A stretch of DNA of 64,000 nucleotides from a virus (taxonomy: Duplodnaviria; Heunggongvirae; Uroviricota; Caudoviricetes), in the IMG/VR virus record IMGVR_UViG_3300010213_000001, positions 180,701 to 244,700 of that record. One strand, 5' to 3'. Position numbers and translations under genes: made by a program. This document shows positions 12,640 to 64,000 of the stretch, one piece after another; the stretch's first letter is position 1, and each line of letters opens with the position of its first letter. Below the pieces are notes generated by a model. It did not search any database. It was not told the DNA's origin and saw nothing but the letters and a program-made list of their open reading frames with translations.

Positions 12640-14014
12640 ATTTTCCTCTTGAATTTTTTATTATGGTTTCTAGATCTTCGTTGTGAATACCTAATATAAA
12701 TCCATGTGTTACAATCTCTGGGGTGTACCTTCTATCGATAGGATCATCTCCATCATTAATTATAACTATTTGACATTTACTTAAATCAGGTTCAAACAAC
12801 TTCTTAATTAATTGAATAGCTTGCTTTAAACAAGATTCAATATTAGTAATTCCTTTTGTAAAAGAGCCAAAGCTTCCTGTCTTTATAAAAGCCAAAGCTT
12901 CATCTCTATTCTCAACTATAATGTGTCTATGTATAGTCTTTTCAAACCAACATATTAATAATCTAGCTTTATTATTAATAACAGCTTCTAATCTATTATA
13001 AACTATGGCTTCAACCCATAACTTCTTCTCAGTTGTGTTCATACTAGAGCTATCATCTATCATTAATAATAGATTCTGCTTATCTTCTGGAATATCTCTA
13101 TTTACTTGTAGTTGATTAGTACATAACTTATATTGGAAGTTAGGTAATACCATAGAGCTAAATGATGCTAGCTTCCCTATTTCTCCAATATGTTCCATCT
13201 GTTGGACTTTTCTAATATTTGGAGACTTAACTACTTTTATATTTCCTCTTGATTTTAGTATAGCCATCTTTTCTAAAAGACGTTTTTGTCTATCTGAAAG
13301 CTTTTGTATATTCTCTTCTGGAGATAGTTTATGATCTCTAAACATGAGATTTTCAATGCTTGATTCACTTCTAAGCATTCCTAATAGCTTCTGTTGTCTA
13401 TTTACAATTACCATAATAGCAGAGACTATACTTGCATCAATTTCTAGATTTTCCTCAGTATCTATAACTATCCCATCTGTTATAAGTTGTCTCTCATCCT
13501 CGAGTCTGATTAATTTCTGATTGATTATATTGATAACTTCGTCATCTTGCTCAGCTTTAATCATAACTCTTAGTTGATTTATAGTTTCGTTAAGTTCTTT
13601 AATCTTCTTCTCATTGTTTATTTTATTTTCTTCTTTTGTCTTATTAGACTTTCTATGTAAGACATCTTTAAATAATGTATAAGCATTTAGTGCTTTATCA
13701 AATGGATTAGATCCAGATATGCAGTTAAAGTTTATACTTAATATTATATCTTGAATGTTTTTATTATACTCATACTCTTCTTGAGTTATAAGACCTTGGT
13801 TTAATAACATAGATAAATCTACTAAACTCTTTTTAACACTAGATCCAAACAGTACATGAGTATAAGCATTACAGAGATCAGCTAGTAGATCAAAGGAATA
13901 ACTATGTTGTTGTTTTGAAGAGATACCATATGTAGTAAGATAATAACTAATTTCTAAGAAAGTAGGCTCTTTAAAGTTTTTATGTGAGACAGTTCTAACT
14001 ATTTTGCTTTCCAT
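12608..14014 (-). CDS. von Willebrand factor A (VWA) domain protein, partner of upstream MoxR-like ATPase
   Basis: C-terminal region LLLMIDDSSSM... carries a MIDAS DxSxS motif followed by a VWA-like hydrophobic pattern. Long coiled-coil N-terminal part. Sits immediately downstream of the MoxR-like gene, the classic MoxR–VWA operon order. Confidence 0.7.
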   Translation of the reverse strand: MESKIVRTVSHKNFKEPTFLEISYYLTTYGISSKQQHSYSFDLLADLCNAYTHVLFGSSVKKSLVDLSMLLNQGLITQEEYEYNKNIQDIILSINFNCISGSNPFDKALNAYTLFKDVLHRKSNKTKEENKINNEKKIKELNETINQLRVMIKAEQDDEVINIINQKLIRLEDERQLITDGIVIDTEENLEIDASIVSAIMVIVNRQQKLLGMLRSESSIENLMFRDHKLSPEENIQKLSDRQKRLLEKMAILKSRGNIKVVKSPNIRKVQQMEHIGEIGKLASFSSMVLPNFQYKLCTNQLQVNRDIPEDKQNLLLMIDDSSSMNTTEKKLWVEAIVYNRLEAVINNKARLLICWFEKTIHRHIIVENRDEALAFIKTGSFGSFTKGITNIESCLKQAIQLIKKLFEPDLSKCQIVIINDGDDPIDRRYTPEIVTHGFILGIHNEDLETIIKNSRGKYEIFQERNSV

Positions 14015-46412: not shown

Positions 46413-46444
46413 AGAGATAGTTATTTAGAGTGAATGAAAATCAG

Positions 46445-46512
46445 TTCTTTCATCAGGAATCGAACCTGATATTGGAGTGATAGCTCCCGTGTTACCATTA
46501 CACTATGAAAGA
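46445..46512 (-). tRNA. tRNA-like gene with truncated anticodon arm (possible pseudo-tRNA)
   Basis: Minus reading: UCUUUCA-UA-GUGU-AAUGGUA-ACAC-G-GGAG-CUAUCA-CUCC-AAUA-UCAGG-UUCGAUU-CCUGA-UGAAAGA-A. Perfect 7-bp acceptor stem, 4-bp D stem and canonical T-arm. The anticodon arm has only 4 bp with a 6-nt loop (67 nt total), so decoding function is doubtful. Confidence 0.45.
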
Positions 46513-46522
46513 AGCCATTACC

Positions 46523-46750
46523 TTAAACAATATATTTATATAAATCATTTAAGATTGTTTTTGCGCACGAATGTTTTGATTGTAATTTAAATCCAGATAA
46601 TTGACCTTCAAATATACTTGAGCAGCCTAACTGCATAAGTTTACAAGATAGTCTATCATATCTTTGTTTGTTATTATTTATCCATACTTGTGGAAATAAT
46701 ATAGTTGCGGTATCTTTACTTCCTTTAACGATTACTTGATTTGAGTTCAT
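46523..46750 (-). CDS. hypothetical protein
   Basis: ORF track. Confidence 0.4.
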   Translation of the reverse strand: MNSNQVIVKGSKDTATILFPQVWINNNKQRYDRLSCKLMQLGCSSIFEGQLSGFKLQSKHSCAKTILNDLYKYIV

Positions 46751-46986
46751 AGTTTTGAAATTTTTGACTCTATAAAATCTTCAATGCATTGTAGACTAGA
46801 AGGTTTTAAATCTATTATAGAGAACTTCTGTCCTTTTATAGATATATCTCCTCCCCAAGCTTTGATATGTTTGCCACTTAGATTAATAAGAGTAATAGTT
46901 ACATCTCTAGCTTCATCTATCTTAATAAATACATTGGGAAATTTATATAAGTAGCCTGTGAAACATAAAATTGTTGGACTAATCAT
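46747..46986 (-). CDS. hypothetical protein
   Basis: ORF track. Confidence 0.4.
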   Translation of the reverse strand: MISPTILCFTGYLYKFPNVFIKIDEARDVTITLINLSGKHIKAWGGDISIKGQKFSIIDLKPSSLQCIEDFIESKISKL

Positions 46987-46992
46987 TAGTTT

Positions 46993-47412
46993 CTAGTTAT
47001 CACTTAGTCTTGATATTATAGACACTATTGCTTGTTTCTCAGACATAAGAAATAGTGTATTATCTTCTAACTCTGATAAGCTTTTTAGCCGCACTGTAGG
47101 ACTGTTCTGTATATAAGATAGTTTATTCTCTTCAGTCTTAGGTACCAAATAGTAGCTTGTGTGAAGTAGGCTTTGCTTCTTAATACAATTATAATTAGTT
47201 GGAATAAGTACATACTTTACTCCCTCTAATGTGTTGTCTACTGCTACATCTTGAAATACCACAGGAACATTCTCCTGATCAAGAATAGTGTATTTATCAG
47301 TAGTTAATATTACAGCGGCTAATAATATTATAAGCCCAACGAGTATCAATCTTATTGATATCTTCATAATTAATTTATTATTAATAAGGTAATTAAATAT
47401 ACAATACTGCAC
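46993..47412 (-). CDS. hypothetical protein with N-terminal signal-anchor
   Basis: Hydrophobic segment ISIRLILVGLIILLAAVILT. Confidence 0.45.
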   Translation of the reverse strand: MQYCIFNYLINNKLIMKISIRLILVGLIILLAAVILTTDKYTILDQENVPVVFQDVAVDNTLEGVKYVLIPTNYNCIKKQSLLHTSYYLVPKTEENKLSYIQNSPTVRLKSLSELEDNTLFLMSEKQAIVSIISRLSDN

Positions 47413-47720
47413 AAAAGTGTAGTAAGGAATACTTTAATATATAAAGTATTGTGATTTGAGCCAGCACTTAGTATTCCTAATACTGACAAGATTACTAGAC
47501 ATACTGATGATTCTACTAACAATTCAAAGTAAACAAAACCAGTTGTTAGTACTATCAATGCTAGTATTAGATAGACAACAAAAGAATCTATTGATCTTGA
47601 TCTTTTTAGATCTCTTATATCTTCTATTATTCTACTTCTAATTAAAGCATTTGATGCATCAATCATTTTTTGTCTAGCAGCTTCTTTTTGTTTTTGCTGC
47701 TGGTTTAGTTTATTAGCCAT
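47370..47720 (-). CDS. hypothetical membrane protein
   Basis: Two TM helices. Confidence 0.45.
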   Translation of the reverse strand: MANKLNQQQKQKEAARQKMIDASNALIRSRIIEDIRDLKRSRSIDSFVVYLILALIVLTTGFVYFELLVESSVCLVILSVLGILSAGSNHNTLYIKVFLTTLLCSIVYLITLLIIN

Positions 47721-48043
47721 GACAGATAAATTTTACAGATTAGTACACAAATTAATATGAGTAGTTGTATAGCCGACAATTGCCTGAGATATTTAAATCC
47801 GACTTCTGTTGGACAATTATCATCCAATCTATTGTATTTTAGATATATTTCTTCATAGAAGAAGGCTATCACAAATTGAACTAGAAATAATCCCCAGTAA
47901 ATTGTAAATAATCCTCCAACATACACCACAAAGAGTACAAAGTTAAAAGGCTTAAGATTATAACTAGTCCATTCAGGATTTAAAACCCAACATATTTCTA
48001 CTATAATAGCTATCACTAGTAATAAATAGAATAACTCTTCCAT
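47705..48043 (-). CDS. hypothetical membrane protein
   Basis: Three hydrophobic helices. Confidence 0.45.
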   Translation of the reverse strand: MEELFYLLLVIAIIVEICWVLNPEWTSYNLKPFNFVLFVVYVGGLFTIYWGLFLVQFVIAFFYEEIYLKYNRLDDNCPTEVGFKYLRQLSAIQLLILICVLICKIYLSWLIN

Positions 48044-48348
48044 TATTCTATACTATATATAACATAACCATAGCCATAGTCCTCATAATCAAGATTATAG
48101 AATATTACATAATCTCCATCTTCTTGATCATATTGTTCAGCTATGTTCATGATGTCCTTTAACTTGTTAGCATGGGTCAATCCCTTTACTTCAGTTAAAG
48201 TATTAGTACATATACTTGTATCACAAGCATTATCTACTTTATAGACTCCGTTAGCTATTAGCTTAACACTATCTTCATCAATGTTCAACTGCTTACGCAA
48301 TTTGGTTTGTTTGATGCCTTGTCTTTTTATTGAGATATTTTTCAACAT
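48043..48348 (-). CDS. hypothetical protein
   Basis: ORF track. Confidence 0.45.
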   Translation of the reverse strand: MLKNISIKRQGIKQTKLRKQLNIDEDSVKLIANGVYKVDNACDTSICTNTLTEVKGLTHANKLKDIMNIAEQYDQEDGDYVIFYNLDYEDYGYGYVIYSIE

Positions 48349-48350
48349 AA

Positions 48351-48680
48351 TTAGTTAGATTTAATATTGCCAGTTCTTGTAGTTACTGAGCCTTTTATTG
48401 ACCCACCTGCTTTGACATTCCCACTATTAGTGGTAACATTACCAGATATGTCCCCTTCAATAGCAACGTTACCACTTCTAGTTTCTACAGTTCCAACATT
48501 ACCATTAACAGTTACATTAGTGGCTTTGAGATCAAGTACATCTACATTACCATTAATTATAACTGTAATATTATTGTTGTTTGTTGGGTTACCAGAAGCT
48601 AATTTTCCATCGATATATACATTACCATCTATAATAGATAGTGCTCCATCAGGATAGTCAACTCCATTAACGGTTATCAT
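48351..48680 (-). CDS. bactofilin-like beta-helical repeat protein
   Basis: 109 aa of short Gly/Asn/Val repeats: NGNVDVLDLKATNVTVNGNVGTVETRSGNVAIEGDISGNVTTNSGNVKAGGSIKGSVTTRTGNI. This is the DUF583/bactofilin-type beta-helix pattern. The plus-strand ORF 48367..48657 is its shadow. Confidence 0.45.
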   Translation of the reverse strand: MITVNGVDYPDGALSIIDGNVYIDGKLASGNPTNNNNITVIINGNVDVLDLKATNVTVNGNVGTVETRSGNVAIEGDISGNVTTNSGNVKAGGSIKGSVTTRTGNIKSN

Positions 48681-48988
48681 TGTTTTATATAATATGTTAG
48701 ATGTGGATAATTTTTAGAAACATATAATTGTAATTTCAATCTATGCTTAAGTGGTAAGATAGATAAGTACCACTTTATAGTAGCTATTCTCTGAGAATCA
48801 TCCTCACATTGATGAATATTTACAATAACAATTCTGTACATTGCATCATAATCTATCTTATGAGTTGGTACTTTTTCTACTTCCTTTGAGGCAGTATAAA
48901 GTGTTTGAGTTGTATCGTCTTGAGCTACAACCTTAGGAGCTACTAAAGACAACATTACAATTATTATAAATACTAGATTCTTTGTCAT
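48677..48988 (-). CDS. hypothetical secreted protein
   Basis: Signal peptide MTKNLVFIIIVMLSLVAPKVVAQ. Confidence 0.5.
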   Translation of the reverse strand: MTKNLVFIIIVMLSLVAPKVVAQDDTTQTLYTASKEVEKVPTHKIDYDAMYRIVIVNIHQCEDDSQRIATIKWYLSILPLKHRLKLQLYVSKNYPHLTYYIKQ

Positions 48989-48995
48989 AATTAGT

Positions 48996-49277
48996 TTATT
49001 TGTTTAGCTTTTTGATAGTTTCATTATTCTGCTTGATATCCTTACGAACCTCTTCAGCAGCTTTTTGTAATTTGTCTATTGTCTCTTGATTAGAGTCAAT
49101 AAACTTTTTAAGTTTTTTACTGTTCGTTTTTCTCTTCGGTTTTTTTGACGTCAAGTTTGTACTTTTGATCAAATTTACTCTTAGGCAGAAACCACTTATC
49201 CGCGCTATCAACCCAACCAAGGAATGTATTAAATACAATATAGCCTCCATCAGTATTATTATAGCTGATTGTACCAT
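48996..49277 (-). CDS. hypothetical basic protein (start uncertain)
   Basis: Overlaps 49117..49581 by about 160 nt in another frame; one of the two probably starts later. Confidence 0.3.
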   Translation of the reverse strand: MVQSAIIILMEAILYLIHSLVGLIARISGFCLRVNLIKSTNLTSKKPKRKTNSKKLKKFIDSNQETIDKLQKAAEEVRKDIKQNNETIKKLNK

Positions 49278-49581
49278 CTAAAGTATCTAATTCAAACTCT
49301 CCTTCTGGAGCAGGAATTACAGCAACAATGTTCTTTTCAGCTAATACTAATCCTCCAGGAAGATTTCTTTCTATAACTCTCCATCCTTTTGGATGCGTCA
49401 TATTGCCTTGAACTATATGTGTACTATCGTCAGAGTTTAGGGCGAGCCAGCAACCATCATCAGCTCCTGTCTGAAGCTTCTTACTTGTACCATCAGGTAA
49501 TTCCAAAGTGATTTTTTCTTTGATAAATTTGAAGTAACGGCTTTCCTGTTTAGGAATACCAGTCATATATCTTACGCTCAT
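49117..49581 (-). CDS. hypothetical protein
   Basis: Balanced composition over 154 aa. Confidence 0.5.
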   Translation of the reverse strand: MSVRYMTGIPKQESRYFKFIKEKITLELPDGTSKKLQTGADDGCWLALNSDDSTHIVQGNMTHPKGWRVIERNLPGGLVLAEKNIVAVIPAPEGEFELDTLDGTISYNNTDGGYIVFNTFLGWVDSADKWFLPKSKFDQKYKLDVKKTEEKNEQ

Positions 49582-49676
49582 ATTAATCTTAGTTTAGATT
49601 GGAAAGTGATTTATTAAGGTTGAATCTACTTAGCTCCTTATCTATATCAGCTATACTTTTCTCAAGTTCTAACTGC

Positions 49677-50459
49677 TTAGCAACTAATAGGAAATGTATA
49701 TAGTGTTCCAACTTCTAATTCAGATATATCAATATCTTTACCGAAGATTATATCATACAATCTTGATTGAGATTCTGTGCAATCTTGTCTCAGTTTTCTG
49801 TAAAATTCTAAATTAACCTCAACAAATTTATTATATAATATAGATGACCATGCTGCTGCTAGTTTTGGTTTCTGTTCTACTGGTGCGGCATTAATAATGA
49901 TTTGAGCATCTTGTTTACTTAATGTAAAAGGAAATCTGTGTGTATTATATACAGTACTACTGTTAGTCTTAAATAGATCAGCTACTTCTATTACTTCATA
50001 AGATTGATCGATGAAGTATTCCAAATCTGAATACTGACCTTCTACTATAAGATAACATGTCTTATTTTTATAATTTTGCCAGCTATCATGTTTTAAATAC
50101 CTCTGCCCACCACTCCAAGTATAACCTTGTCTATCAGCTTCCTCTAGTAACATCTTAGCCTCTTCAAGAGTTTTTGCATGATAAGCAGTGTTACTTTTAA
50201 ATATTATACCTGGCTTATGTATTATCTCTGAATTATATGTTTTGAAGAACACATCAAATCTTCTATATGTTATCACTTCCTCCCAGAAATCAAGTCCTTC
50301 TGTAGTAAAAGTCCAATCAAATCCTCCTTCTTGAGAGGTTGATTTTATATCTTTTTCAAATATTGTGATATCTTTTGTGCCTGTATGCTGTTCCTGATAG
50401 TAGAGCATCTTTTCTAGTATTACTTCAGGAAATCCAAAAATTTCTCCTTTATATGACAT
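49677..50459 (-). CDS. hypothetical protein
   Basis: ORF track. Confidence 0.5.
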   Translation of the reverse strand: MSYKGEIFGFPEVILEKMLYYQEQHTGTKDITIFEKDIKSTSQEGGFDWTFTTEGLDFWEEVITYRRFDVFFKTYNSEIIHKPGIIFKSNTAYHAKTLEEAKMLLEEADRQGYTWSGGQRYLKHDSWQNYKNKTCYLIVEGQYSDLEYFIDQSYEVIEVADLFKTNSSTVYNTHRFPFTLSKQDAQIIINAAPVEQKPKLAAAWSSILYNKFVEVNLEFYRKLRQDCTESQSRLYDIIFGKDIDISELEVGTLYTFPISC

Positions 50460-50471
50460 AGTAATTTAGAT

Positions 50472-50810
50472 TTATTTCCATAAATATTTATCACATAGAT
50501 AGTTTGTCACTACTATTGATGATATACTCTGGAGTATTAATCCCCAACCATTTACACAATAACCTGATGAAAATCCAGCTACTTGAATATTATCGTAACA
50601 GCTGTCACTTAAGATAATGAAGATAGTACTTATAATACCAATTACTATTATCAGTCCAAGTAACTTTACAACGATCTTGATAAACTCTGGTATATGTGCA
50701 TGCTTGAAGCGTTCTACAATCTTGTATACCATAATACACAACAATGCCCCAAAAGTACCCATAACAGCACCAATCAATATATTTAAAATTATAGCGATGA
50801 TTGTTCCCAT
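50472..50810 (-). CDS. hypothetical membrane protein
   Basis: Three hydrophobic helices. Confidence 0.45.
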   Translation of the reverse strand: MGTIIAIILNILIGAVMGTFGALLCIMVYKIVERFKHAHIPEFIKIVVKLLGLIIVIGIISTIFIILSDSCYDNIQVAGFSSGYCVNGWGLILQSISSIVVTNYLCDKYLWK

Positions 50811-51112
50811 AATTGTTTATGTTTTTGATTAATTTTATTAATAGCTTCATTTAAATACTCAATTTTAGAATTTGATGGATACCAACCTTTAATTAGGCTT
50901 ATCATCATCCTATTCCTTTCATCCTCTAAGGTAGTGGACATAATACATAACTCACGCAACGATTTAATATTATCTATACTATCTAGAAACTTCATTTGCT
51001 CTGGCGTATACACTACTTTATTCTTAAGTTTAGTGTACTTAGACTTAACTCTTCTAAATAATAGATAATCTAAAGCTCCATCACATATAGCACACATGAT
51101 ACTATATATCAT
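50789..51112 (-). CDS. hypothetical protein
   Basis: ORF track. Confidence 0.45.
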   Translation of the reverse strand: MIYSIMCAICDGALDYLLFRRVKSKYTKLKNKVVYTPEQMKFLDSIDNIKSLRELCIMSTTLEDERNRMMISLIKGWYPSNSKIEYLNEAINKINQKHKQLWEQSSL

Positions 51113-51339
51113 TACTTTAGAAGTTTAGAGTGAGCGCAGAGATCATATGATTTATAATGACAAACATCTATTAATCCTTTGTGATGTATATGCCTGACTA
51201 CAATCTTAGTATCTTGATTGCCTTGCTTATAAGATATCTTTAAGACCTCAACCCCAAGAAATGATACTTGAGTAGGTTGTGTTACAATAAATACTAATGC
51301 TATAAGACTTAGCACGAAAGTTATAATTACTGTTCTCAT
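51112..51339 (-). CDS. hypothetical protein with N-terminal TM helix
   Basis: MRTVIITFVLSLIALVFIVTQ. Confidence 0.4.
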   Translation of the reverse strand: MRTVIITFVLSLIALVFIVTQPTQVSFLGVEVLKISYKQGNQDTKIVVRHIHHKGLIDVCHYKSYDLCAHSKLLK

Positions 51340-51344
51340 AAAAA

Positions 51345-51866
51345 TTAAGTTAAAGGAGATTCTTCATAAAGATAAGCTAGTTCATCAAGAACTATACATT
51401 CTTTATTTAATATTAATACAGATTCGCAATCCCAACCATATAGATTAGGTAAAGATAGGTGTGTTTCGGATAATCCATTAGTAGTAAGATGTACAGCATC
51501 ATAATCTTTAGTCATACTCTCAAAGTCAAGACATTCTGCGAGCTTTATTCTTATTAGCATATTAAACATTCTTGATTGTTCAGAAATATCTTTAAGATTA
51601 TACTTATCTAATAACTTTATTAAGTCAGAAAGGCAATCTATAGTACATATCTTACTATTCTCAGATAAGTTTAATTCAAAAGAATTTTCTTTCTCACAAG
51701 TTCTAAATGATGAGTCCTTACACCAGTCTTTCCACCCATACTTTGAATCTATTGGAGATGTCCACAATCCACCAATAGGTTTATTTACTATTGGTAAAGG
51801 TACATTCTTTATAGGTACAAACTTTTCATCTATAAATGATTTGCTTCCGTAATGTATTAATTTCAT
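51345..51866 (-). CDS. hypothetical protein
   Basis: ORF track. Confidence 0.5.
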   Translation of the reverse strand: MKLIHYGSKSFIDEKFVPIKNVPLPIVNKPIGGLWTSPIDSKYGWKDWCKDSSFRTCEKENSFELNLSENSKICTIDCLSDLIKLLDKYNLKDISEQSRMFNMLIRIKLAECLDFESMTKDYDAVHLTTNGLSETHLSLPNLYGWDCESVLILNKECIVLDELAYLYEESPLT

Positions 51867-51880
51867 TTGTATGTTTTAAG

Positions 51881-51994
51881 AGAGTCCAAGGGGAATCGAA
51901 CCCCTGCTTATTCACCTTATATCCTATCTAGAATAGGAAGGTTCTCTTTCTCCTGGGATTTGGAGCGTGCTACCACTACACTATAGACTCTTAC
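51881..51994 (-). ncRNA. tRNA-like element with ~45-nt insertion and non-canonical anticodon arm
   Basis: Minus reading: acceptor GAGUCUA…UGGACUC (6 WC pairs plus 1 G•U), D-arm GUG-UAGUGGUAG-CAC, T-arm AGGGG-UUCGAUU-CCCCU. Between them lie a 4-bp stem with 8-nt loop (CUCC-AAAUCCCA-GGAG) and an extra hairpin UCCUAU-UCUAG-AUAGGA. Total about 113 nt. Confidence 0.4.
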
Positions 51995-51996
51995 CA

Positions 51997-52500
51997 CTAG
52001 AACTTTGTACTATAGAAGTTGAATACTTCTTTAGCGACATCAATTAAATGACTATCGTTATTGTATACTCCACTAAAAACTATTTTTGGATTCTCGACTA
52101 AAGCAGTTTTAGGTATTGTACACATAGTATATGAAAAGAATCCCTCTCTATCAAACATTCTAGTATTTATAGGGATACTTAATACATCATCTTTAGACGT
52201 CAGTACTATTCCAATATGTTGATCCAATCTTTCCCCAACTATTACAGCATAATGCTTCAAGCCTTTAATATATACTATATCTCCAAACCCTAAATATTGA
52301 GGTACAAACATATATCCATGTTCATATACTCTAGCTTTGTAACTAGCCTCTTGTGTTACATCTTCAAAACTCTTATTCTTTTCTAGAATAGTTTCTATGT
52401 GAGTTAGAAAGTTAGTAACTATATTAGAGTGTATAGTATCTTTATCCAGCTTTTCTTGGAAATAATCTTGAATAAGATTTCTAAATTTCTTTACATTCAT
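51997..52500 (-). CDS. hypothetical protein
   Basis: ORF track. Confidence 0.5.
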   Translation of the reverse strand: MNVKKFRNLIQDYFQEKLDKDTIHSNIVTNFLTHIETILEKNKSFEDVTQEASYKARVYEHGYMFVPQYLGFGDIVYIKGLKHYAVIVGERLDQHIGIVLTSKDDVLSIPINTRMFDREGFFSYTMCTIPKTALVENPKIVFSGVYNNDSHLIDVAKEVFNFYSTKF

Positions 52501-52764
52501 AATTTGAAAAGTTTATCAAACAACTTCTGACTACCTAATACCTTGTCAGCAGTATTGCTCATCAGATTGTAAAACGCAACATTTTAGTTCAATAGCCTAC
52601 TAATCTTACTTAATGTTAGGAAGAGTGATTTCCAACCACTTAACGTTGACATGAATCTTCTATATTAAATAACTGTTCGCACGTCATCTTGAACTATTTT
52701 AGTACTGCTGAGCAGATTTACTACGTATTTATTTTTGTTTGCTGTAAGTTGTTTTATATAAAAA

Positions 52765-52800
52765 TAATAAAGGGTACACTCAATAGAATGTACCTTTTAT
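52765..52800. terminator. putative bidirectional rho-independent terminator
   Basis: Hairpin ggtaca-ctcaatagaa-tgtacc, flanked by T/A runs on both strands, in a 465-nt intergenic region. Confidence 0.4.
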
Positions 52801-52965
52801 AAACTCGCATAACAAATATAAAAATAATTATTTTATAATATCTTATACAGTTATAATATACTTGGCAGTAATAGTGCTAAAATATAGATTATTCCTGCAA
52901 TCATTCCTGCAATTATACTATTCCTTTTATTTTGAGTGGTAGCATAATATATTATAAAGCATGTA

Positions 52966-53466
52966 CTATAATACATCACAGCTCCAATTAAAGATAATAA
53001 TAATCACTGCTTTACTACTCTCCTTATTAATATAAGGCAATACTAATGAGATTGGGAGTGTTATTATATATCCAGTTGTATTACCCTTGACTATATCGAG
53101 GGAACTGTCTGGCTTGCCAGCATTGCAGGAATATAATTCTATTGTCTTATCTTGAACAGAAGTAAAACTCAATCCACAGCTTCCATATCTATTACCATGA
53201 CCCCAAAATATAATGGTATCATATAGACTATAATCTATATCATTCTTAATAGTTGTAGGTTCTAAAGGAATTGGGCAGAAGAATCTAATAATACTAGGCC
53301 CTTCATCTACTAGTAACAAGGTCTTAGTTCTTGTAGAATACTCATAAGGATCAAACAACTTGAACGAGTATGCTGCAAGAAATGTAGAAAGAGCCATACA
53401 AGATAGAACAAAAGCAATCTTTACATGAGTTTTGAAAATTTTCATAATTGTGTTTTTATGTGACAT
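52966..53466 (-). CDS. hypothetical membrane / secreted protein
   Basis: N-terminal TM helix and a C-terminal hydrophobic stretch. Confidence 0.45.
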   Translation of the reverse strand: MSHKNTIMKIFKTHVKIAFVLSCMALSTFLAAYSFKLFDPYEYSTRTKTLLLVDEGPSIIRFFCPIPLEPTTIKNDIDYSLYDTIIFWGHGNRYGSCGLSFTSVQDKTIELYSCNAGKPDSSLDIVKGNTTGYIITLPISLVLPYINKESSKAVIIIIFNWSCDVL

Positions 53467-53849
53467 AATTCTAGTGCATTATATACAAATGGATAGTTCC
53501 ACAGTTCTTTCAGTTCCTTATTATTTACAAAACCTTTTACTACTACATTACTTTGCGGCGTAAGCATAGCAAATCTATTATAAATAAATCTACTACTATT
53601 AAAATTTGTAACAGACTCATAATCTACCAATACTGATACCTTCCTTTGTTGTTTTACACCGTTTCTATAAACATTATAAACAACTGTTTTGGTAGTTGGT
53701 GATACAATAATAGTATCCAGCTCAAATGAATGCTCGTCAGGATTTAAGTCAATAGTTCCAGATGACGGACTAGGTGGATTGTTTGCAGCAGCTACTGACA
53801 CAATAAATAAAATAAATAAACCGAAGAATAACAAAAATAAATTTTTCAT
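53442..53849 (-). CDS. hypothetical secreted protein
   Basis: Signal peptide MKNLFLLFFGLFILFIVSVAAA. Confidence 0.5.
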   Translation of the reverse strand: MKNLFLLFFGLFILFIVSVAAANNPPSPSSGTIDLNPDEHSFELDTIIVSPTTKTVVYNVYRNGVKQQRKVSVLVDYESVTNFNSSRFIYNRFAMLTPQSNVVVKGFVNNKELKELWNYPFVYNALELCHIKTQL

Positions 53850-53942
53850 ATGATATACAGTTAAAAAATAAAAATAAATAAAAACAAAGTTTTGGTGCGA
53901 GACTGGGACTCGAACCTACGACCTTCCTTATTATACTATTAG

Positions 53943-55271
53943 TTATATACTTAAAACTTTAAACCAATTGTCTTGATTGAGACCACCTGATAACTGAAGT
54001 TTATAAGCTTCTTTTATCAACTGTCCCATTTTAGGACCTGGTTGGATACCTCTTTCCATAAGTAGTCTAGAATTGACAATAGGTATAAACCTACCTTGTG
54101 CCATCATACTACTAACTCTATCATTCATATCATTTATGAATGTAAAGTCTGGAACTATAGGAGGTCTTCCCGATTCATCAGCTTTCATTGCTTTAACTAA
54201 ATCATTAAAAGTAAGTCCAGCCTTGAATAACTTATCTGCTTTGTGCGCCAACTTCTTATCTTTAATAGATTTAGAAGTATGTAACATATGCATTTCAACT
54301 AGTACTAGAATCTTATCAATCTCCTTTCTACCTCCAAATCCTGGAGCTGCTTCCAACATTACTCTACTAAGCATAATATCAGCTAATGGAACAGAATCAT
54401 CTTCATGTCCAATAGCTTGTATCTTTCCAGTTACAGGATGGATAGTAGTAGTCACAGATTTACCTAGGTCATGACACATCATAACTATTCTAGTAAAATA
54501 GTCATTAGCTGCATCTATACAGTGCATAGTATGTGAATAAGCATCTCCTTCTGGATGGTGTGTAGGATCTTGAGGTATACCTTTTAAGTCGTATAACTCA
54601 GGGAATATGTTATCCCAACCTACTTCATATATAAAATTGAAGAACATGCTAGGTTTGACAGCTTGCTTCATAGCTTTATATAATTCCATACCAAACCTTT
54701 CAGCTGGTAGATTGTCACTATTAAGACTCTTACACATATCAATCAACTCTTGGGTAGGAGTTAGATTGAACCTAGATATAAATCTAGCAGCTCTTAATAC
54801 TCGTAGTGGATCTTCAGCAAATGCTGCTGATACAGGTCTTGCAATCCTATTCTTTAAATCTCGAAGACCTCCATAAGGGTCTATCAACTCTCCTGTCAAT
54901 ACATTTTTAGCAATTGCATTGATAGTCAAGTCGCGTCTTAATAAGTCATCTAGAATAGAGGCATTAAATATTACCTCAAAGTCTTGATGTTTATTACCAA
55001 TCTTTTTCTCTCCTCTACATAAAGCAAAATCATACTCTTGGTTGTCTATTACAGCCTTTACGACTGCTAATGAACCTCCAACAGCTTCCTTTGTAATATG
55101 AGAAGAGAATGGTGTTAGGTACTCAACCAGTGTGTTGAAATTACAGTTTTCAACTGCAATATCAATATCATCACAAGGAATACCTAGAATTTCATCTCTA
55201 ACACACCCTCCTACATAATATAGGTTAATGTTTTTAGCTACTAGAGTCTTAGCTATGTTTGTAATAGACAT
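53943..55271 (-). CDS. cca: tRNA nucleotidyltransferase (CCA-adding enzyme) with C-terminal HD domain
   Basis: Pol-beta-like head domain YYVGGCVRDEILGIPCDDIDIAV (GG..RD....D.D motif). Then RRDLTINAIA and EDPLRVLRAARF motifs. C-terminal HD motif MMCHDLGK. Confidence 0.75.
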   Translation of the reverse strand: MSITNIAKTLVAKNINLYYVGGCVRDEILGIPCDDIDIAVENCNFNTLVEYLTPFSSHITKEAVGGSLAVVKAVIDNQEYDFALCRGEKKIGNKHQDFEVIFNASILDDLLRRDLTINAIAKNVLTGELIDPYGGLRDLKNRIARPVSAAFAEDPLRVLRAARFISRFNLTPTQELIDMCKSLNSDNLPAERFGMELYKAMKQAVKPSMFFNFIYEVGWDNIFPELYDLKGIPQDPTHHPEGDAYSHTMHCIDAANDYFTRIVMMCHDLGKSVTTTIHPVTGKIQAIGHEDDSVPLADIMLSRVMLEAAPGFGGRKEIDKILVLVEMHMLHTSKSIKDKKLAHKADKLFKAGLTFNDLVKAMKADESGRPPIVPDFTFINDMNDRVSSMMAQGRFIPIVNSRLLMERGIQPGPKMGQLIKEAYKLQLSGGLNQDNWFKVLSI

Positions 55272-55350
55272 AATAAGTTTATTTTACATTATTGAATAAA
55301 TTCCATATCTTATGAATATAATAGAAAGTATTGTAACTATTATACCAGTT

Positions 55351-55788
55351 CTAAACTAGTTCTAAAGTGATTGTATTGCCTCCTATAATCTTCTCAGTTC
55401 TACCAAACTCAATTACTTTAAGTATTAGTATTTGTATAGCAGGAATATGAGAAGATTTAATCTTCCCAGTGTACATACTATCGTACATATGATAGAATAG
55501 ATCTTTAACTCCTACAACAGTTATATCTTTAACTGTAGAAGAATTATCAGAGTGAACTAATCTAAACTTGTGACCATCTGGTTTAGTCATATAAACCTTT
55601 GTCTCTTTTCCATGCTTAGTTTTCTCTTGTACGTGCCACAATAAGTAGCCTGAATCAAGCAGCTCTAAAGCTAATTCAGTGAATTGAGAATCAGACAAAT
55701 GTTTAACAGCGAATGTCATACCTACAATGTTTCTGTTGTAGGTATTGATTACACTTCTGTAATGATTGATTAATTTACTTTTGCTCAT
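55351..55788 (-). CDS. hypothetical protein
   Basis: ORF track. Confidence 0.5.
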   Translation of the reverse strand: MSKSKLINHYRSVINTYNRNIVGMTFAVKHLSDSQFTELALELLDSGYLLWHVQEKTKHGKETKVYMTKPDGHKFRLVHSDNSSTVKDITVVGVKDLFYHMYDSMYTGKIKSSHIPAIQILILKVIEFGRTEKIIGGNTITLELV

Positions 55789-55816
55789 GACGAATAAATA
55801 TTTAAGTATTGAAAAA

Positions 55817-56035
55817 TTAAAATTGGTACTTTAGTATAAATATAGACACTGCATGTCTAGCCGCCTTCTTAAAGTACCTTCTTCTTTGGCGTTTAGTACT
55901 AGAATTTCTTATATAAGATCTGTACTCACCTCCCTTACGAGGTAGTTGTCCTATACAAGATTTTCTAGCAGTCTTTTGCATGTCGAGTATATCATTGTAC
56001 TCTTCAAACTTTTTGTTTCTGCCGTATGGAACCAT
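55817..56035 (-). CDS. hypothetical small basic protein
   Basis: Arg/Lys-rich 72 aa. Confidence 0.4.
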   Translation of the reverse strand: MVPYGRNKKFEEYNDILDMQKTARKSCIGQLPRKGGEYRSYIRNSSTKRQRRRYFKKAARHAVSIFILKYQF

Positions 56036-56371
56036 AAGTTTGCTTTTATTTAAACAAATAAAAGTTGCACCAAGACTCGAACTTGGATGTATCTATTATC
56101 TACCCACACTAAACTACCTTACTAACTTCCGTTATCAGATATTGACTACGATTGCTCCTCACACTTACCCATTACTGCTATACAGTAATATTGATCGTAG
56201 GTTTACTGAACATTGCTCTCCAAAAGCTTTCATTCAATAAGTTTAGTTGCATTTTTAAGACAGTAAGGCGAAGAAGAGAACAAAGTCCCGAGCCCTAGTA
56301 ATCCGCAGTTATGTATTATATGGTACAATAGATATGCATTACCAATTATGCTATGCAGCTGTAAATATTAA

Positions 56372-58342
56372 TTATATTCTTATTGACAATTCACAATTTC
56401 CCAATTCGTAGACATTTACTTTAACGCCATCATCAGATCTATATTCTTTACTTACTGTGAATAAGCTTGGATCTAGATTGAATACTGATCTTAATATAGA
56501 TTGATCAAAGTATGTAACATTTTCTAGGAATGTAGCTTTCTTTATAGTAGTAACTACTCCTGTGGCGTTGGTATAATATCTATCTCTTGAACTAGAAAAT
56601 GGTGATACTTTGTTATTATATCCCACTCTATGCGATGGACATCCGTTAGCAGCAACTATTACAGTTGATACTAAAGTCTCATTTACTTGCACACTATCTT
56701 TCTTGTATCCTAGTCTAGCTAAGATATGGGATAGTTTTCTATACCCTTCAATAGCTTGTTGTTCAGCCATAAAGAAAGTTATAGATTTCTTACTAAGAGC
56801 TTTATTTATTTTTTCCAGCTCTTTTGATACACTAGAGAAATCTTTAGTGTCTTTGTCTGCAAGCTTATCCATAAGGTCACTCTTTCTATTCTTCAAGTTT
56901 ATACGCTTTACTATACTGTTAAACAGTTTAATATTAGCATAAGATGTAGAAGTATAATTGGAGAAGAATGATCTTACCTTATCTTCATCAGCTAATTTAT
57001 CTACTACAGTACCAAATTTAGTATAAGCTTCTATTGCTAGAAACTTAATTGCTTCTTTAGCAATTCCTAATTTGATAGAGTAATATACAATAAGTGCTTG
57101 ACTATATTCCAACATAGTTAAGAGTGGAGCTATCTTCTTACCTTTGTCAGTAAATCGATTACTCTCATCTATAACATTATTGTTACGGAGTTCCTCAAGG
57201 ATATTATTATACAGTCCTTGATCGTATGGAGTTATAAGTTTATCGTTATCAATATTCTGTGCTATTGTATTAACAACAAACTCTCTAGCATCTAATAAAT
57301 CTATGGCTCTTAGAGGATAATCTTTACGATTATCATATGAGCCAATTAGAGTATACTTGTAAGGAAGAGAATCTTCCTCTAATGCAATTCTACCTATACG
57401 ACCTGCGGCTTGAATTATCTCTGCTTTAGATACATCAAAGTCTGTAAGATCTTTCACACCCTTATTATTAACCAGGTGTCTAATAACACCTAAATCAACA
57501 ACAGCTTTTATCCAACTAGGATATGTAAGACCAGTACGTCCAATATTAGTCGCAACTATAACAGCTTGACCATCTTCCTCTTTATGTTGAAGATAAGCCA
57601 TTCTCTCTTTGTTATCTAACTCTCCATGCATCACATATACAGACACTTTATTAGCTGTCTTATTTGTATATGTAGTAATCATATCTACTACTTCTTTTAT
57701 TTCTCCTTTGCCTGGACAAATAGTAATAAAAGAATATCCTTCTTGCAATCTAGTATTGATAACACTTCTTAAATCGTGTGTTGAATCAATCTTACCAAAT
57801 ACAGGACTGCCTTCAACATGATGGGATGTTGTTGTAGCTTCTATTATTGAACACGACAAATAGTCAGCAAACATACTTCCTTGTACTGTTGCAGATGTAA
57901 CTAATACTTTACATCCTAATATCATACATTTGTACAAATTAACAACAGTATTAAATTCTAATTGATGTGCTTCATCAATTATAACAAGAACATCTGACAT
58001 ATCCTCTTTATCTAGTTTAGATGTCAGGATACCTTCTGTCATATATACTATCTGTGCATTAGTATTGGAACTAGTGCCACGACCAGTGATATGACCAATC
58101 AATTGTGATTGTCCACTACCCTCTATTGCAGTTGCAGCGTTTGATTCTGCTTGAGCAACACGAGGTTGGGACACATATACCTTACTTATTCCTTTAACTG
58201 TTTGTCTTAGGTAGTAAGGCAGATAAATTGTCTTACCAGTTCCTGTCGCACTAGTTAAGACGCATCTACCATTATCATTTAGTTGATTAGCAATAGCATC
58301 AACATAACTAGATATAGGTAGATTTAAATACCAATCTTTCAT
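56372..58342 (-). CDS. DEAH/DExH-box (HrpA-like) RNA helicase
   Basis: Motif I TSATGTGKT, II IIDEAH, III SAT, V VATNIGRTGLTYP, VI QAAGRIGR. Confidence 0.7.
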   Translation of the reverse strand: MKDWYLNLPISSYVDAIANQLNDNGRCVLTSATGTGKTIYLPYYLRQTVKGISKVYVSQPRVAQAESNAATAIEGSGQSQLIGHITGRGTSSNTNAQIVYMTEGILTSKLDKEDMSDVLVIIDEAHQLEFNTVVNLYKCMILGCKVLVTSATVQGSMFADYLSCSIIEATTTSHHVEGSPVFGKIDSTHDLRSVINTRLQEGYSFITICPGKGEIKEVVDMITTYTNKTANKVSVYVMHGELDNKERMAYLQHKEEDGQAVIVATNIGRTGLTYPSWIKAVVDLGVIRHLVNNKGVKDLTDFDVSKAEIIQAAGRIGRIALEEDSLPYKYTLIGSYDNRKDYPLRAIDLLDAREFVVNTIAQNIDNDKLITPYDQGLYNNILEELRNNNVIDESNRFTDKGKKIAPLLTMLEYSQALIVYYSIKLGIAKEAIKFLAIEAYTKFGTVVDKLADEDKVRSFFSNYTSTSYANIKLFNSIVKRINLKNRKSDLMDKLADKDTKDFSSVSKELEKINKALSKKSITFFMAEQQAIEGYRKLSHILARLGYKKDSVQVNETLVSTVIVAANGCPSHRVGYNNKVSPFSSSRDRYYTNATGVVTTIKKATFLENVTYFDQSILRSVFNLDPSLFTVSKEYRSDDGVKVNVYELGNCELSIRI

Positions 58343-58369
58343 AAAAATTAAATTTAAAGTGATTTACCG

Positions 58370-58443
58370 TGGATCAGCTAGGACTCGAACCTAGGACTTC
58401 GATATTATGAGTATCGCACTCTAACCAACTGAGTTACAGATCC
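58370..58443 (-). tRNA. tRNA-Met/Ile2 (anticodon CAT)
   Basis: Minus reading folds canonically: acceptor GGAUCUG/CUGAUCC (6 of 7 pairs), D-arm ACUC-AGUUGGUUA-GAGU, anticodon arm CGAUA-CUCAUAA-UAUCG (U33, A37), variable AAGUC, T-arm CUAGG-UUCGAGU-CCUAG, discriminator A. CCA not encoded. 74 nt. Confidence 0.8.
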
Positions 58444-58834
58444 AGCCTTAACTATTCTTCATTACTATCTACTTCATCGAGCATCCTCTCTATATCTTCA
58501 AGAGGTAAGCTCTTCTGTAGCTCTTCTATCTTCTCTTCCCTCTTTACTTCAGTCAGAGGAATTAGCGAAACTATAGTCTAGGCTAAGATAAAAAGTCCCA
58601 AGATAATGTATAATAGTATCATAAATAATTAATTTAGTTTTAGCACCCTCTATTACTAGTAGGGTCACAAGTAGTCTCTAGAAAACTACTTTTGCTGGGA
58701 ACTCATTCATACCGTAACTCATACTTGCTTACGCAGAGGCTTTGTTATCCTAACCCTTTCCCAAGAGGTCGATATGTAGTAGATTTCGCTACTCATTCTT
58801 ATTTTACTTCGTGTCAATGTTTTCCGAAGTGTTA

Positions 58835-59251
58835 TTATATTATATGCAAGCCAATTACCTGTTCAACAACTGGCTTTATCTTATTCCAATCTACACTTAG
58901 TTCTACTGGTTTGTAGATTGAAACTTGATCTATAAATAATATACCAGAGTCTCCTTGCTTTACAGCATCCTGTAGAACTATCTTTTGTCTACTAGAATTA
59001 TAAGTGATTATTATTGAAAACTCTTGCGCAACTTCAGATTGTAAAATCTTGAAGTTAAGAATTGTTTCTGTCTCTGTCTCAACTCTATCTATCAAAGATA
59101 AGGTGGATTTGCTGTCTCTCCAATTCTGAGCTGTAGCAAATGAAACAATAAATAATAAGACTAAAGTTAAAATGGTATTTTTCATATAAATTAAATTAGA
59201 TAGTAAGTAATGATTTAGTTGGGAAGAGAGGATTCGAACCTCCAATTTCAC
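58835..59251 (-). CDS. hypothetical secreted protein
   Basis: Signal peptide …MKNTILTLVLLFIVSFATAQ. Confidence 0.5.
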   Translation of the reverse strand: MKLEVRILSSQLNHYLLSNLIYMKNTILTLVLLFIVSFATAQNWRDSKSTLSLIDRVETETETILNFKILQSEVAQEFSIIITYNSSRQKIVLQDAVKQGDSGILFIDQVSIYKPVELSVDWNKIKPVVEQVIGLHII

Positions 59252-59338
59252 TGCGCTTTCGTCCTAATTTAATAAGAATTTGCTTATAGCTACAGACCCT
59301 CCTTAACAAGGGCGGTTCTACCAATTCACCTACTCCCC
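59219..59338 (-). ncRNA. tRNA-like element with ~50-nt insertion (non-canonical)
   Basis: Minus reading: tRNA-like D region GGU-GAAUUGGUAGA-ACC, stem GCCCU with 8-nt loop UGUUAAGG, then about a 53-nt insert sharing the 12-mer CUGUAGCUAUAA and CGAAAGCG with the P9 region of the AAA intron 2. Then T-arm GGAGG-UUCGAAU-CCUCU. Acceptor pairing is imperfect. Confidence 0.3.
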
Positions 59339-59347
59339 CATATTACA

Positions 59348-63126: not shown

Positions 63127-63777
63127 CTATGTTTCCATGTCATGTTTATATTTCCAAATAAATCCGTATGCTGTTTTTCTTTTTCCTTTACAGCATTTGG
63201 ACAATTCACTTGCATTTTTATTAGTTAATCCGATTGATTTACACGCTTCTGTTAAACTTGGAAAAATGTTTATGAGTGTTAAATCAAGCGAATATTGAAC
63301 AACCTCTACCTGTTTATAATCAAAACTATTTTTCTTTTGTGGTACAAACAAGCCTTTCTCTTTTAAAATATTACGAACTGTGATTCGAGATATTTTTAAA
63401 TAATTCGCTACTTTCTCAGTAGATTTTAATTCTTTATAAAGTTTAGGTACTATATCTTCACATTTCTTTTTTCTTTTACCTCCCTTATTCCCTTCCCCTC
63501 CTATTGTATTGTTATATCCTTTGTTAAAAGAATCAAATAACAAAATAAAAAATTGTTCTTTTTCATTTAATAATTCGTTTTCTATTTCTTCTATTACTTC
63601 AAATGTAAAACAATCTATACCATATTTTTGTATAGCACTATATAGTTTACTTTTATATCGTACTCCCTTTCTACTGTAATATTTATGTTGGTACCAGCGT
63701 ACGTTAGGTTGTTTGATTGTCTGACCGATGTAACACTTATTATTTTTAGTATTTGTAATTTTATATATGACTCCCAT
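63127..63777 (-). CDS. GIY-YIG homing endonuclease (free-standing, Seg-like)
   Basis: N-terminus GVIYKITNTKNNKCYIGQT...RWYQH is the GIY-YIG motif. No intron core elements recognised around it. Lies next to a tRNA-like element. Confidence 0.7.
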   Translation of the reverse strand: MGVIYKITNTKNNKCYIGQTIKQPNVRWYQHKYYSRKGVRYKSKLYSAIQKYGIDCFTFEVIEEIENELLNEKEQFFILLFDSFNKGYNNTIGGEGNKGGKRKKKCEDIVPKLYKELKSTEKVANYLKISRITVRNILKEKGLFVPQKKNSFDYKQVEVVQYSLDLTLINIFPSLTEACKSIGLTNKNASELSKCCKGKRKTAYGFIWKYKHDMET

Positions 63778-63942
63778 AGTGTAATATTTTATTTACAATA
63801 ATAAAATGAACGTATAAAATTACCAAATAACTTATCCCATTTAAGGGCTTACACTCTCACTTTCGTGGAGTATTATAAAAGTACCATAAATCCAAAAGAC
63901 TTACAGTACTTGTCTATGTTTTACCTTAAAACTAGCGACCAC

Positions 63943-64000
63943 ACCTAGAATCGAACTAGGTTATATCTTACTAGGTGTGAGATATGTATATTATATCCCA
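63943..64000 (-). ncRNA. partial tRNA-like element at window edge
   Basis: Minus reading shows T-arm CCUAG-UUCGAUU-CUAGG, then a GUGGUCG acceptor-like 3' strand. The 5' part runs off the window and no anticodon stem is recognisable in the available sequence. Confidence 0.25.

Follow-up and report, generated by a model that had tools for sequence, protein, structure and literature searches.

The 64,000-nucleotide (nt) stretch of DNA analysed here (the window) forms the end of a metagenomic phage contig of 244.5 kb, of which it covers the final 64 kb; the contig is IMG/VR record IMGVR_UViG_3300010213_000001, with position 64000 lying ~26 nt from the contig end. The question raised by this locus is what a phage does with transfer RNA (tRNA) genes most of which appear unable to decode normally, yet whose tRNA body looks selected. 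Besides one canonical tRNA gene, the window carries four non-canonical elements, termed E1 to E4. The usual explanations of phage tRNA genes are codon supply and the evasion of tRNA-cutting nucleases of the host. The best explanation overall for E1-E4, which on their sequence we regard as having an even chance of being correct, is that all four undergo a tRNA-like maturation, E3 and perhaps E4 being decoders and E1 and E2 non-decoding mimics.

The default run of ARAGORN reports two genes in the window, a CAU tRNA at 58369-58443 and a “tRNA-???” at 46444-46512, and rejects E2, E3 and E4. The Rfam tRNA model RF00005 matches four places, namely the canonical tRNA at 58370-58443 on the minus strand (65.3 bits), E1 at 46445-46512 (minus strand; 47.6 bits, 6 nt standing in for 9 in the model), E2 at 51881-51990 (minus strand; 43.3 bits, 52 nt in place of 13), and E3 at 59219-59339 (minus strand; 29.4 bits, 62 nt in place of 15). 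E4, at 56062-56360 on the minus strand, was recovered with the intron option of ARAGORN and an acceptor/D-arm detector as a Thr(UGU)-like body with a 228-nt insert. A first-pass annotation had singled out the element at 58370..58443 as the only standard tRNA, which the ARAGORN call (CAT) and the RF00005 score bear out, and had listed six odd tRNA-like elements besides it. Those at 46445, 51881, 59219 and 56040 are indeed tRNA-derived, whereas the one at 53887 is an orphan fragment and the one at 63943 belongs to an intron-like RNA. The core of that annotation also withstands the standard tools, ARAGORN and Rfam not folding E1-E3 as canonical tRNAs. The T-loop motif GGTTCRAWTCC, with at most one mismatch, occurs 9 times in the window against 1.33 expected, a number reached in 0 of 100 shuffles, which indicates that the tRNA-like set exceeds chance.

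The tRNA body, comprising the acceptor stem, a D arm with G18 and G19, and a UUCRANY T loop, is found in each of E1-E4. The 7-position acceptor stem is paired at 7/7 positions in E1 and E2 and at 6/7 in E3 and E4; U8, A14, G18, G19 and A21 are retained; the T loop reads UUCGANU with G53-C61; and the 15-48 Levitt pair is present in E2, E3 and E4. With D and T arms intact, the abnormality is restricted to the anticodon or variable region. An anticodon arm with a stem of 5 base pairs (bp), a 7-nt loop, U33 and a purine at 37 is missing from E1 and E2, appears in E4 only after removal of 228 nt, and is found in E3 in one register with four pairs and one C-U mismatch. Variable regions of 44 nt in E2, 51 nt in E3 and 3 nt in E4 fall outside the 4-5 nt, or up to ~21 nt in class II, of ordinary tRNAs. 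A transfer-messenger RNA (tmRNA) identity was rejected for E1-E4, as none has G3-U70, all have D stems, and ARAGORN reports no tmRNA. CCA is encoded by none of the five tRNA-type genes, which lie 0.8 to 7.5 kb from the gene of the phage CCA-adding enzyme. The canonical tRNA itself (anticodon CAU, 3' flank ACGG) is called tRNA-Met by ARAGORN; AUA being the commonest Ile codon (795/1538, counted like all codons here over 79 open reading frames (ORFs) of the window), it is possibly a lysidine-dependent tRNA-Ile2 rather than Met.

The anticodon region is shrunken in E1 and enlarged in E2. E1 (68 nt; 46512-46445) has the sequence UCUUUCA-UA-GUGU-AAUGGUA-ACAC-G-GGAG-CUAUCA-CUCC-AAUA-UCAGG-UUCGAUU-CCUGA-UGAAAGA-A. 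Its anticodon arm GGAG-CUAUCA-CUCC consists of 4 bp and a 6-nt loop, three nucleotides short in an otherwise normal molecule, and the “tRNA-???” call of ARAGORN comes with a two-base anticodon (at). E1 folds as a cloverleaf with z = -2.5 against shuffles. E2 (110 nt; 51990-51881) is closed by the acceptor strands GAGUCUA/UGGACUC with discriminator U, and its anticodon-arm analogue, CUCC-AAAUCCCA-GGAG, pairs over 4 bp around an 8-nt loop; the extra arm of 44 nt includes an 11-bp hairpin. The cloverleaf of E2 is given by the minimum-energy and centroid folds alike (z = -2.1). Enumeration of every single excision that leaves a standard-length arm yielded at best 3 of 5 stem pairs, so that E2 is not an interrupted normal tRNA. 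The 4-bp stem with an 8-nt loop recurs in a family of IMG/VR elements (family B) and at 12739-12815 of the related phage L002, both described below. E2 also shows a weak match to the mascRNA model, 27.2 bits against a gathering score of 42.5. Its U73, G1-C72, G3-C70 and CCC triplet after U resemble what we take to be bacterial Gly identity elements. Judging from these arms, E1 and E2 are probably non-decoding tRNA mimics. A role as decoys of anticodon nucleases, considered in the first-pass annotation, is less plausible for E1 and E2 because the anticodon loops are their altered part.

E3 (121 nt; 59339-59219) is a class-II, Leu-type element with the D arm GGU-GAAUUGGUAGA-ACC and discriminator A73. 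A 4-bp stem with a 6- or 8-nt loop had been one of the defects ascribed to the odd elements as a group; this description fits E1 (6 nt) and E2 (8 nt) but not E3, in which the canonical register CCCUU-GUUAAGG-AGGGU provides U33, anticodon UAA and G37. With a readable UAA arm, the abnormality of E3 is therefore its 51-nt variable region, not an 8-nt loop; the other oddity is a G1-A72 mismatch. E3 fits a long Leu-type class in IMG/VR, characterized by the D loop AAUUGGUAGA, 58-88 nt to GGUUCRAAUCC, a paired acceptor and A73, its own values being a 73-nt gap, 6/7 acceptor pairs and A73. Unlike most members of the class, E3 has kept a readable anticodon arm. A73, the Leu-type D arm and the intact UAA arm together make it most likely that E3 still acts as a tRNA-Leu(UAA), which would serve UUA, the commonest Leu codon (674/1628).

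E4 had been described as an element at 56040 without a 5' half. That half is present 228 nt upstream, at 56360-56323, and reads AGCUGCA-UA-GCAU-AAUUGGUA-AUGC-A-UAUCU-AUUGUAC (acceptor strand, D arm, A26 and loop), its 5' end lying 12 nt past the stop codon of a helicase gene. The insert (56322-56095, 228 nt) follows loop position 38, that is, 37/38 or 38/39, and the 3' half (56094-56062) continues with AGAUA-CAU-CCAAG-UUCGAGU-CUUGG-UGCAACU-U, the discriminator being U. Only under the intron option does ARAGORN recover E4, while the acceptor/D-arm detector finds 6/7 acceptor pairs and the D arm. In a scan of D arms in metagenomes, the D arm of E4 proved common to ordinary tRNA-Thr(UGU) and tRNA-Cys(GCA) genes, and its loop AUUGUAC (U33, UGU, A37) is that of the Thr genes with the same D arm. 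Joined to each other, the exons restore an anticodon arm of 5 bp whose 7-nt loop contains U33, UGU and A37, and the recovery of a needed tRNA favours an intron. In the precursor, A32, U33 and U34 pair with the last three bases of the insert, AAU, and extend the anticodon stem to 8 bp; this fits an intron-anticodon helix or a cargo carried on the stem.

A narrow and lax Rfam scan of 56000-56400 (E up to 10) matched no family, including group I introns (RF00028). The identical settings, as a positive control, recovered a group I intron within a tRNA of L074, a distantly related jumbo phage, at 41.4 bits; there and in L075 (2873-3140), the anticodon loop is split by a ~195-nt group I intron that scores below the RF00028 gathering score of 50. 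A group I intron in E4 is accordingly rejected, as RF00028 detects no core there though the control matched, and the best P1-like pairing places U-A rather than U-G at the junction. An nhmmer search of the insert against the DNA gathered in the analysis returned only the insert itself. Several junctions in E4 obey the U/G rule, with U ahead of the 5' splice site and G ending the intron, and the tRNAs that they give are atypical, with a 3-nt or 10-nt variable region or a forced Leu(taa). ARAGORN accepts hundreds of arbitrary junctions and is hence uninformative on this point, and a strict junction enumeration found no class-I solution with a 4-5-nt variable loop. The sequence is compatible with an intron at position 37/38, the archaeal/eukaryal-type site; no splicing endonuclease or ligase was found among ~40 window ORFs scanned. 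The insert may be spliced out, as an intron of unrecognised type, or may stay in place for good as a cargo. Small unconventional introns had been proposed for the odd elements as a group: no excision works for E2 and none is needed for E3, while in E4 the exons do rebuild the Thr(UGU) stem-loop around an insert that matches no Rfam family. E4 may thus hide an unrecognised mode of interrupting a bacterial-type tRNA.

Comparable elements were sought in IMG/VR by three pattern scans built from the D and T arms of the window elements. More than 270 phage loci with short or long tRNA look-alikes were recovered, counts that are the product of biased patterns and not frequencies. The scan for 36-66 nt between D and T arms gave at least 119 loci, with 7/7 acceptor pairs in most of the matches listed. 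The scan for a gap too short for an anticodon arm gave 36 loci, in several of which the arm has given way to a hairpin capped by a GNRA or UUCG tetraloop, or to a 6-nt loop resembling that of E1. The third scan, for a Leu-type D loop followed by 58-88 nt, gave at least 119 loci; among the matches listed, 6 or 7 of 7 acceptor pairs are formed in 90 of 99 distinct sequences and A73 is present in 80 of 107. The long forms are located inside large phage tRNA arrays, and their only Rfam match is tRNA. One scaffold, AGUCAGG-UG-GCG-GAAUUGGUAGA-CGC...ACAGG-UUCGAAU-CCUGU-CCUGACU-A, is nearly invariant (L243-L359) and lies in genome contexts that are not homologous; its inserts, at least 25 in number, are 36-86 nt long and unrelated to one another, and two different ones are present in L301. 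The idea that this scaffold is a hypervariable cassette was rejected, since the flanks are non-homologous between loci and do not represent one diversifying locus. Interrupted tRNA-Leu genes were likewise rejected: in the intron mode of ARAGORN, the anticodons obtained from 92 long Leu-type elements are random (Leu in 7/69). A GenBank search with the Leu scaffold matched only the D arms of ordinary tRNA-Leu genes, and blastn of E2, E4 and a further group of elements, family A, against GenBank phages gave no match. Family B folds into a cloverleaf of five arms, in which a stem of 4 bp bears an 8-nt loop that does not vary, and compensatory changes are seen at 10 base pairs.

Family A itself (L088-L206, e.g., L096 8640-8737 and L168 2619-2713) comprises at least 20 distinct phage tRNA-like elements whose inserts have in common the motif AGGAAGUCCGAGA-[GNRA hairpin]-GGAGUAGGCA-[hairpin], with a covarying stem closing it. 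Its likeness to the CR-I element of RNase P (GGAAAGUCC) is only superficial, and it corresponds to no Rfam family. We also note a GOLLD RNA (L115 844-1304; 195 bits) in the same tRNA array as the long tRNA-like element L115 160-257. The pattern's D arm is shared by class-II-shaped suppressor tRNAs with long variable arms, for example with anticodon UCA in L140, L147 and L104 and CUA in L183, L113 and L166; these presumably belong to stop-recoded phages and are unrelated to this window.

The protein genes around the elements had been read as an RNA-metabolism neighbourhood with a CCA-adding enzyme and a DEAH helicase, and both gene assignments are confirmed. The CCA-adding enzyme (tRNA nucleotidyltransferase) at 53943-55271 on the minus strand, 442 amino acids (aa) long, matches PF01743 (E = 2.6e-25) and phrog_2244 (E = 2.1e-75), and its relatives are labelled CCA-adding enzyme by the Joint Genome Institute (JGI). 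The DEAH/RHA helicase at 56372-58342 on the minus strand (656 aa) contains the Pfam domains DEAD and Helicase_C, its best matches among solved structures being HrpA, Prp2, Prp22 and DHX8 (E ~1e-18). The CAU tRNA precedes its gene by 28 nt, and E4 follows at a distance of 12 nt. The two closest relatives of the helicase, P0122 (939 aa) and P0123 (1009 aa), extend ~300 aa further at the C-terminus and align with it over their first ~620-650 residues only; tblastn for the missing C-terminus downstream of E4 gave no match. The order from helicase to CCA-adding enzyme recurs in L410, which together with a permuted Y-RNA-type candidate at ~35040-35105 supports the neighbourhood as first read. At the place of the window's CAU tRNA, L409 has a 52-nt mini tRNA-like element (9926-9977), ~25 nt upstream of the homologous helicase. 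In this element and a similar one at L007 1227-1274, a 7-bp acceptor stem and a T arm are accompanied by a single short hairpin, D and anticodon arms being absent.

The nearest phage, L002, has a CCA-adding enzyme 68% identical to that of the window, with which it shares ~3 of 38 ORFs. Its tRNA-like element at 7172-7245 has the acceptor start of E2, GAGUCU, and a degenerate anticodon arm, and the one at 12739-12815 combines an 8-nt loop on a stem of 4 bp with an additional hairpin. A further RNA of 171 nt in this phage (8658-8828) matches both ends of the tmRNA model at 34.5 bits, against a gathering score of 47; it has a G3-U70 acceptor stem and a ~100-nt middle in which no tag reading frame is obvious, and may represent a tmRNA-like RNA in miniature or an Ala-type tRNA mimic. 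A 12-nt loop is found in the tRNA-like element at L007 16487-16564. A search of IMG/VR for the CCA-adding enzyme with a single protein pattern found nothing, and a profile search found relatives at no more than 45% identity.

The explanation preferred here, maturation of all four elements with decoding by E3 and perhaps E4, can be put as a sequence of steps. E1-E4 would be transcribed with the neighbouring genes and excised by host RNase P and 3' nucleases. As CCA is missing from all five tRNA-type genes, it would then be added by the CCA-adding enzyme of the host or of the phage, and the products would be stable L-shaped RNAs. From E4, a tRNA-Thr(UGU) body would result, the 228-nt RNA being spliced out by an unrecognised route or kept as cargo; E4 would decode only with the insert removed. 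E1 and E2 would bind, titrate or be modified by proteins that recognise the acceptor/T-arm half, and candidate targets are synthetases, processing enzymes and defence toxins directed at the CCA end. Whatever is said here of the expression, processing, aminoacylation or function of E1-E4 is what we infer from the letters of the DNA. If expressed and matured, the elements would constitute a family of viral tRNA mimics. The wider proposal is that phages at large encode tRNA-scaffold RNAs in which a conserved, processable body bears, where the anticodon domain would be, a module that is shortened, capped by a tetraloop or highly variable. Four of the five tRNA-type genes of this phage would be of that kind, its own CCA-adding enzyme and helicase would mature or remodel the products, and these would be decoys or sponges against host factors and defence toxins directed at the acceptor/CCA end; this we put forward tentatively, as an idea that may well fail. 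If true, the tRNA-scaffold class would often be Leu-type with A73, as in the AGUCAGG...CCUGACU-A scaffold, and possibly aminoacylatable.

Several observations weigh against these proposals. The folds of E3 (z = -0.2) and E4 (z = -1.4) are no more stable than shuffles, and both have a mismatched acceptor, G1-A72 in E3 and C3-A70 in E4, the latter together with a 3-nt variable loop. These exact elements occur in one genome only, and the covariation evidence comes from analogue families and not from E1-E4; family B, the nearest to E2 by nhmmer, reaches an E of only ~1e-3 and is an analogue, not an orthologue. The bias of the scan patterns counts here as well. A strict detector applied to 86 unselected neighbourhoods of CCA-adding enzymes (1.6 Mb) found 55 ordinary tRNAs and 2-3 genuine long forms; look-alikes are so few there that a link to the CCA-adding enzyme is not general, and four non-canonical genes out of five appears to be unusual for this window.

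The elements may be accounted for in other ways. It is unlikely that all four are working decoders, E4 as a spliced Thr(UGU), E3 as Leu(UAA), E2 as a Gly tRNA reading through U-CCC-A and E1 with its 6-nt loop. The heavy use of UUA and ACA codons agrees with such decoding, as do the intact anticodon arm of E3, the canonical arm rebuilt from the exons of E4, and the Gly-like features of E2, presumably identity elements. A decoding tRNA with an 8-nt loop is also reported for yeast mitochondria (PMC3113583). The E4 insert, however, matches no self-splicing family, with no splicing enzyme among the window ORFs scanned; the triplet of E2 is displaced, with four nucleotides 5' and one 3', and GGG is the least used Gly codon (48/670); the arm of E1 is three nucleotides short; and comparable phage elements with tetraloop-capped arms cannot decode. 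The loop sizes of 6 and 8 nt bring to mind a more specialised form of decoding, in which they would promote programmed -1/+1 frameshifting or quadruplet decoding at specific phage genes, and expanded-loop frameshift suppressor tRNAs are well known. We give this hardly any credence, as the stems too are cut to 4 bp, unlike those of classical suppressors, and all three stop codons are used normally; no candidate site was seen, although no search for one was made.

Decay offers a different account, in which insertions and deletions disrupted a former tRNA cluster, the genome being rich in homing endonucleases and introns. In the window there are two group I introns and no fewer than four homing-endonuclease genes, the fragment at 53887 is an orphan T arm, neither the E3 insert nor the E4 insert folds better than shuffles, and the elements are confined to one genome. 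Against this, each element has kept 15-16 intact stem pairs and every conserved tertiary nucleotide outside the anticodon or variable region, to which the damage is confined; the insert of E2 forms an 11-bp hairpin; and the short and long architectures recur in hundreds of unrelated phage contigs, with compensatory changes in one family. Dead DNA is, moreover, rarely kept in virulent phage genomes. The pseudo-tRNA reading, which the first-pass annotation had listed among its options, is therefore decidedly unlikely, the stems being near perfect. If the elements served instead as processing signals, tRNA-shaped sites at which RNase P and 3' nucleases cleave long early transcripts and release a functionless RNA, the bracketing of the helicase gene by the CAU tRNA (28 nt) and E4 (12 nt), the L409 mini tRNA-like element ~25 nt upstream of the homologous helicase, and the one-strand genes with their short spacers would find an explanation. 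An acceptor stem and a T arm suffice for such cleavage, and the D arms, Levitt pairs, UAA arm and conserved inserts would remain unexplained; we consider that the elements have a low probability of being mainly signals.

Among described systems, the closest precedent for the window elements is the pair RNAC and RNAD of phage T4, small stable RNAs in a phage tRNA cluster that also holds the GIY-YIG gene segB. The 3' end of RNAC has a perfect T arm, CCGGG-UUCGAAU-CCCGG, and an acceptor-like strand after ~110 nt of non-tRNA structure. The window elements share with this pair the features of a phage tRNA cluster and of a tRNA-like T arm and acceptor end. E1-E4 are far nearer to complete tRNAs than RNAC, which has neither a D arm nor an acceptor stem of the full 7 bp, and an nhmmer search of the T4 tRNA region with E1-E4 produced no match with E up to 10. 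The roles of RNAC and RNAD are unknown (PMC3014915, PMC9697503). A family of matured mimics would provide a comparative route into this 50-year-old question, and the tRNA-scaffold class, should it exist, would give RNAC and RNAD a functional family.

A likeness to YrlA (RF02553), the partner of Ro60/Rsr, lies in a non-decoding RNA with tRNA T arm, D arm and acceptor-like stem, in a phage that has a TROVE-like protein. YrlA is circularly permuted, its ends lying on the anticodon side and its acceptor stem being closed by a loop. This is in contrast to the normal tRNA topology and open acceptor ends of E1-E4, which do not match RF02553. A permuted tRNA-like module was nonetheless recognised by eye at 35040-35105 on the minus strand, where the T arm GAAGG-UUCGAAU-CCUUC comes first, the acceptor hairpin UUGACUA-CUUAG-UAGUCAA, closed by its loop, comes next, and a D arm, UGGUGGAAUGGUAGACAC, comes after it, in a topology of YrlA type; the Rfam YrlA model stays below threshold on this candidate. 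Its neighbours are a LAGLIDADG gene (35635-36369) and a DUF2828/TROVE-like gene (36572-37993).

E4 resembles group I-interrupted tRNAs such as cyanobacterial tRNA-Leu(UAA), Azoarcus tRNA-Ile and the tRNA of L074 in having a ~200-230-nt insert in the anticodon loop and exons that rebuild the stem. It differs from them in the missing RF00028 match, the U-A junction, and the position of the insert at 37/38 or 38/39. In mascRNA (MALAT1), the tRNA-like RNAs of gammaherpesvirus 68 and tRNA-scaffold RNAs, a tRNA body gives RNase P processing, CCA and stability; these systems are eukaryotic or synthetic and have no homology to E1-E4. The 8-nt loop of E2 is common to tRNA-Thr1 of yeast mitochondria, reported to be a natural 8-nt-loop tRNA decoding triplets (PMC3113583). 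Both this tRNA and frameshift suppressors have a 5-bp stem and a normally placed anticodon, whereas in E2 the stem is of 4 bp, the triplet is displaced and there is an extra arm of 44 nt. A 2023 survey of IMG/VR lists “tRNAs or tRNA-like structures”, uncharacterised, among thousands of candidate structured RNAs (PMC10690425), and CCA-adding enzymes and TROVE proteins figure as RNA-repair components in a review of jumbo phages (PMC7824862). In the literature no paper on these architectures was found, and standard tRNA finders skip or mislabel such genes. The window elements are best filed as a new form of phage tRNA-like RNAs with putative functions.

Two elements were set aside from the tRNA-like set. 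The orphan T-arm-like fragment at 53887..53925 on the minus strand ends in CACCA and has 3/5 T-stem pairs (z = -1.2); no 5' partner with a D arm was found within 3 kb. It is probably a remnant and is not counted as a tRNA-like gene. The other, at 63937..63965 on the minus strand and ~60 nt from the contig end, is a T-arm-like hairpin, CCUAG-UUCGAUU-CUAGG, which sits inside a structured RNA homologous to L002 12590-12840, the homologous blocks in the window being 63930-63815 and 63107-63030. The window copy is split by a GIY-YIG gene (63127-63777) and resumes at GAUAAGUUUGAGUUA past the gene. The motifs ACGAAAGU and AAGCCCUUAAAUGGGAUAAGUU are found in this RNA, which also forms a long-range helix, UUUGAGU/ACUCAAA. 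In L002 the copy is uninterrupted and folds with z = -3.4, with a tRNA-like module embedded at the same place. The structured RNA around the GIY-YIG gene is probably an intron unrecognised by Rfam, rather than a tRNA.

The wider setting is that of a jumbo phage, with genes for lysozyme, AAA ATPases, ThiF and a phosphoribosyltransferase, and with a DUF2828/TROVE-like protein (phrog_850, “RNA-binding protein”). The window is AT-rich (G+C ~30%), and all its genes are carried by the minus strand, co-oriented and separated by short spacers. A scan of this AT-rich sequence for promoters and terminators gave a signal no better than shuffles, and megablast of the region against GenBank phages gave no match, so that no cultured phage there resembles it. 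Recoding of stop codons in this phage is ruled out, as all three stops are employed in the window ORFs. The homing-endonuclease genes are of the GIY-YIG and LAGLIDADG types, and the two group I introns were identified by Rfam at 50.8 and 92.2 bits. These introns lie close together on the minus strand, at 30389-30630 and 30829-31116, and one of them adjoins a GIY-YIG ORF at 31085-32014.

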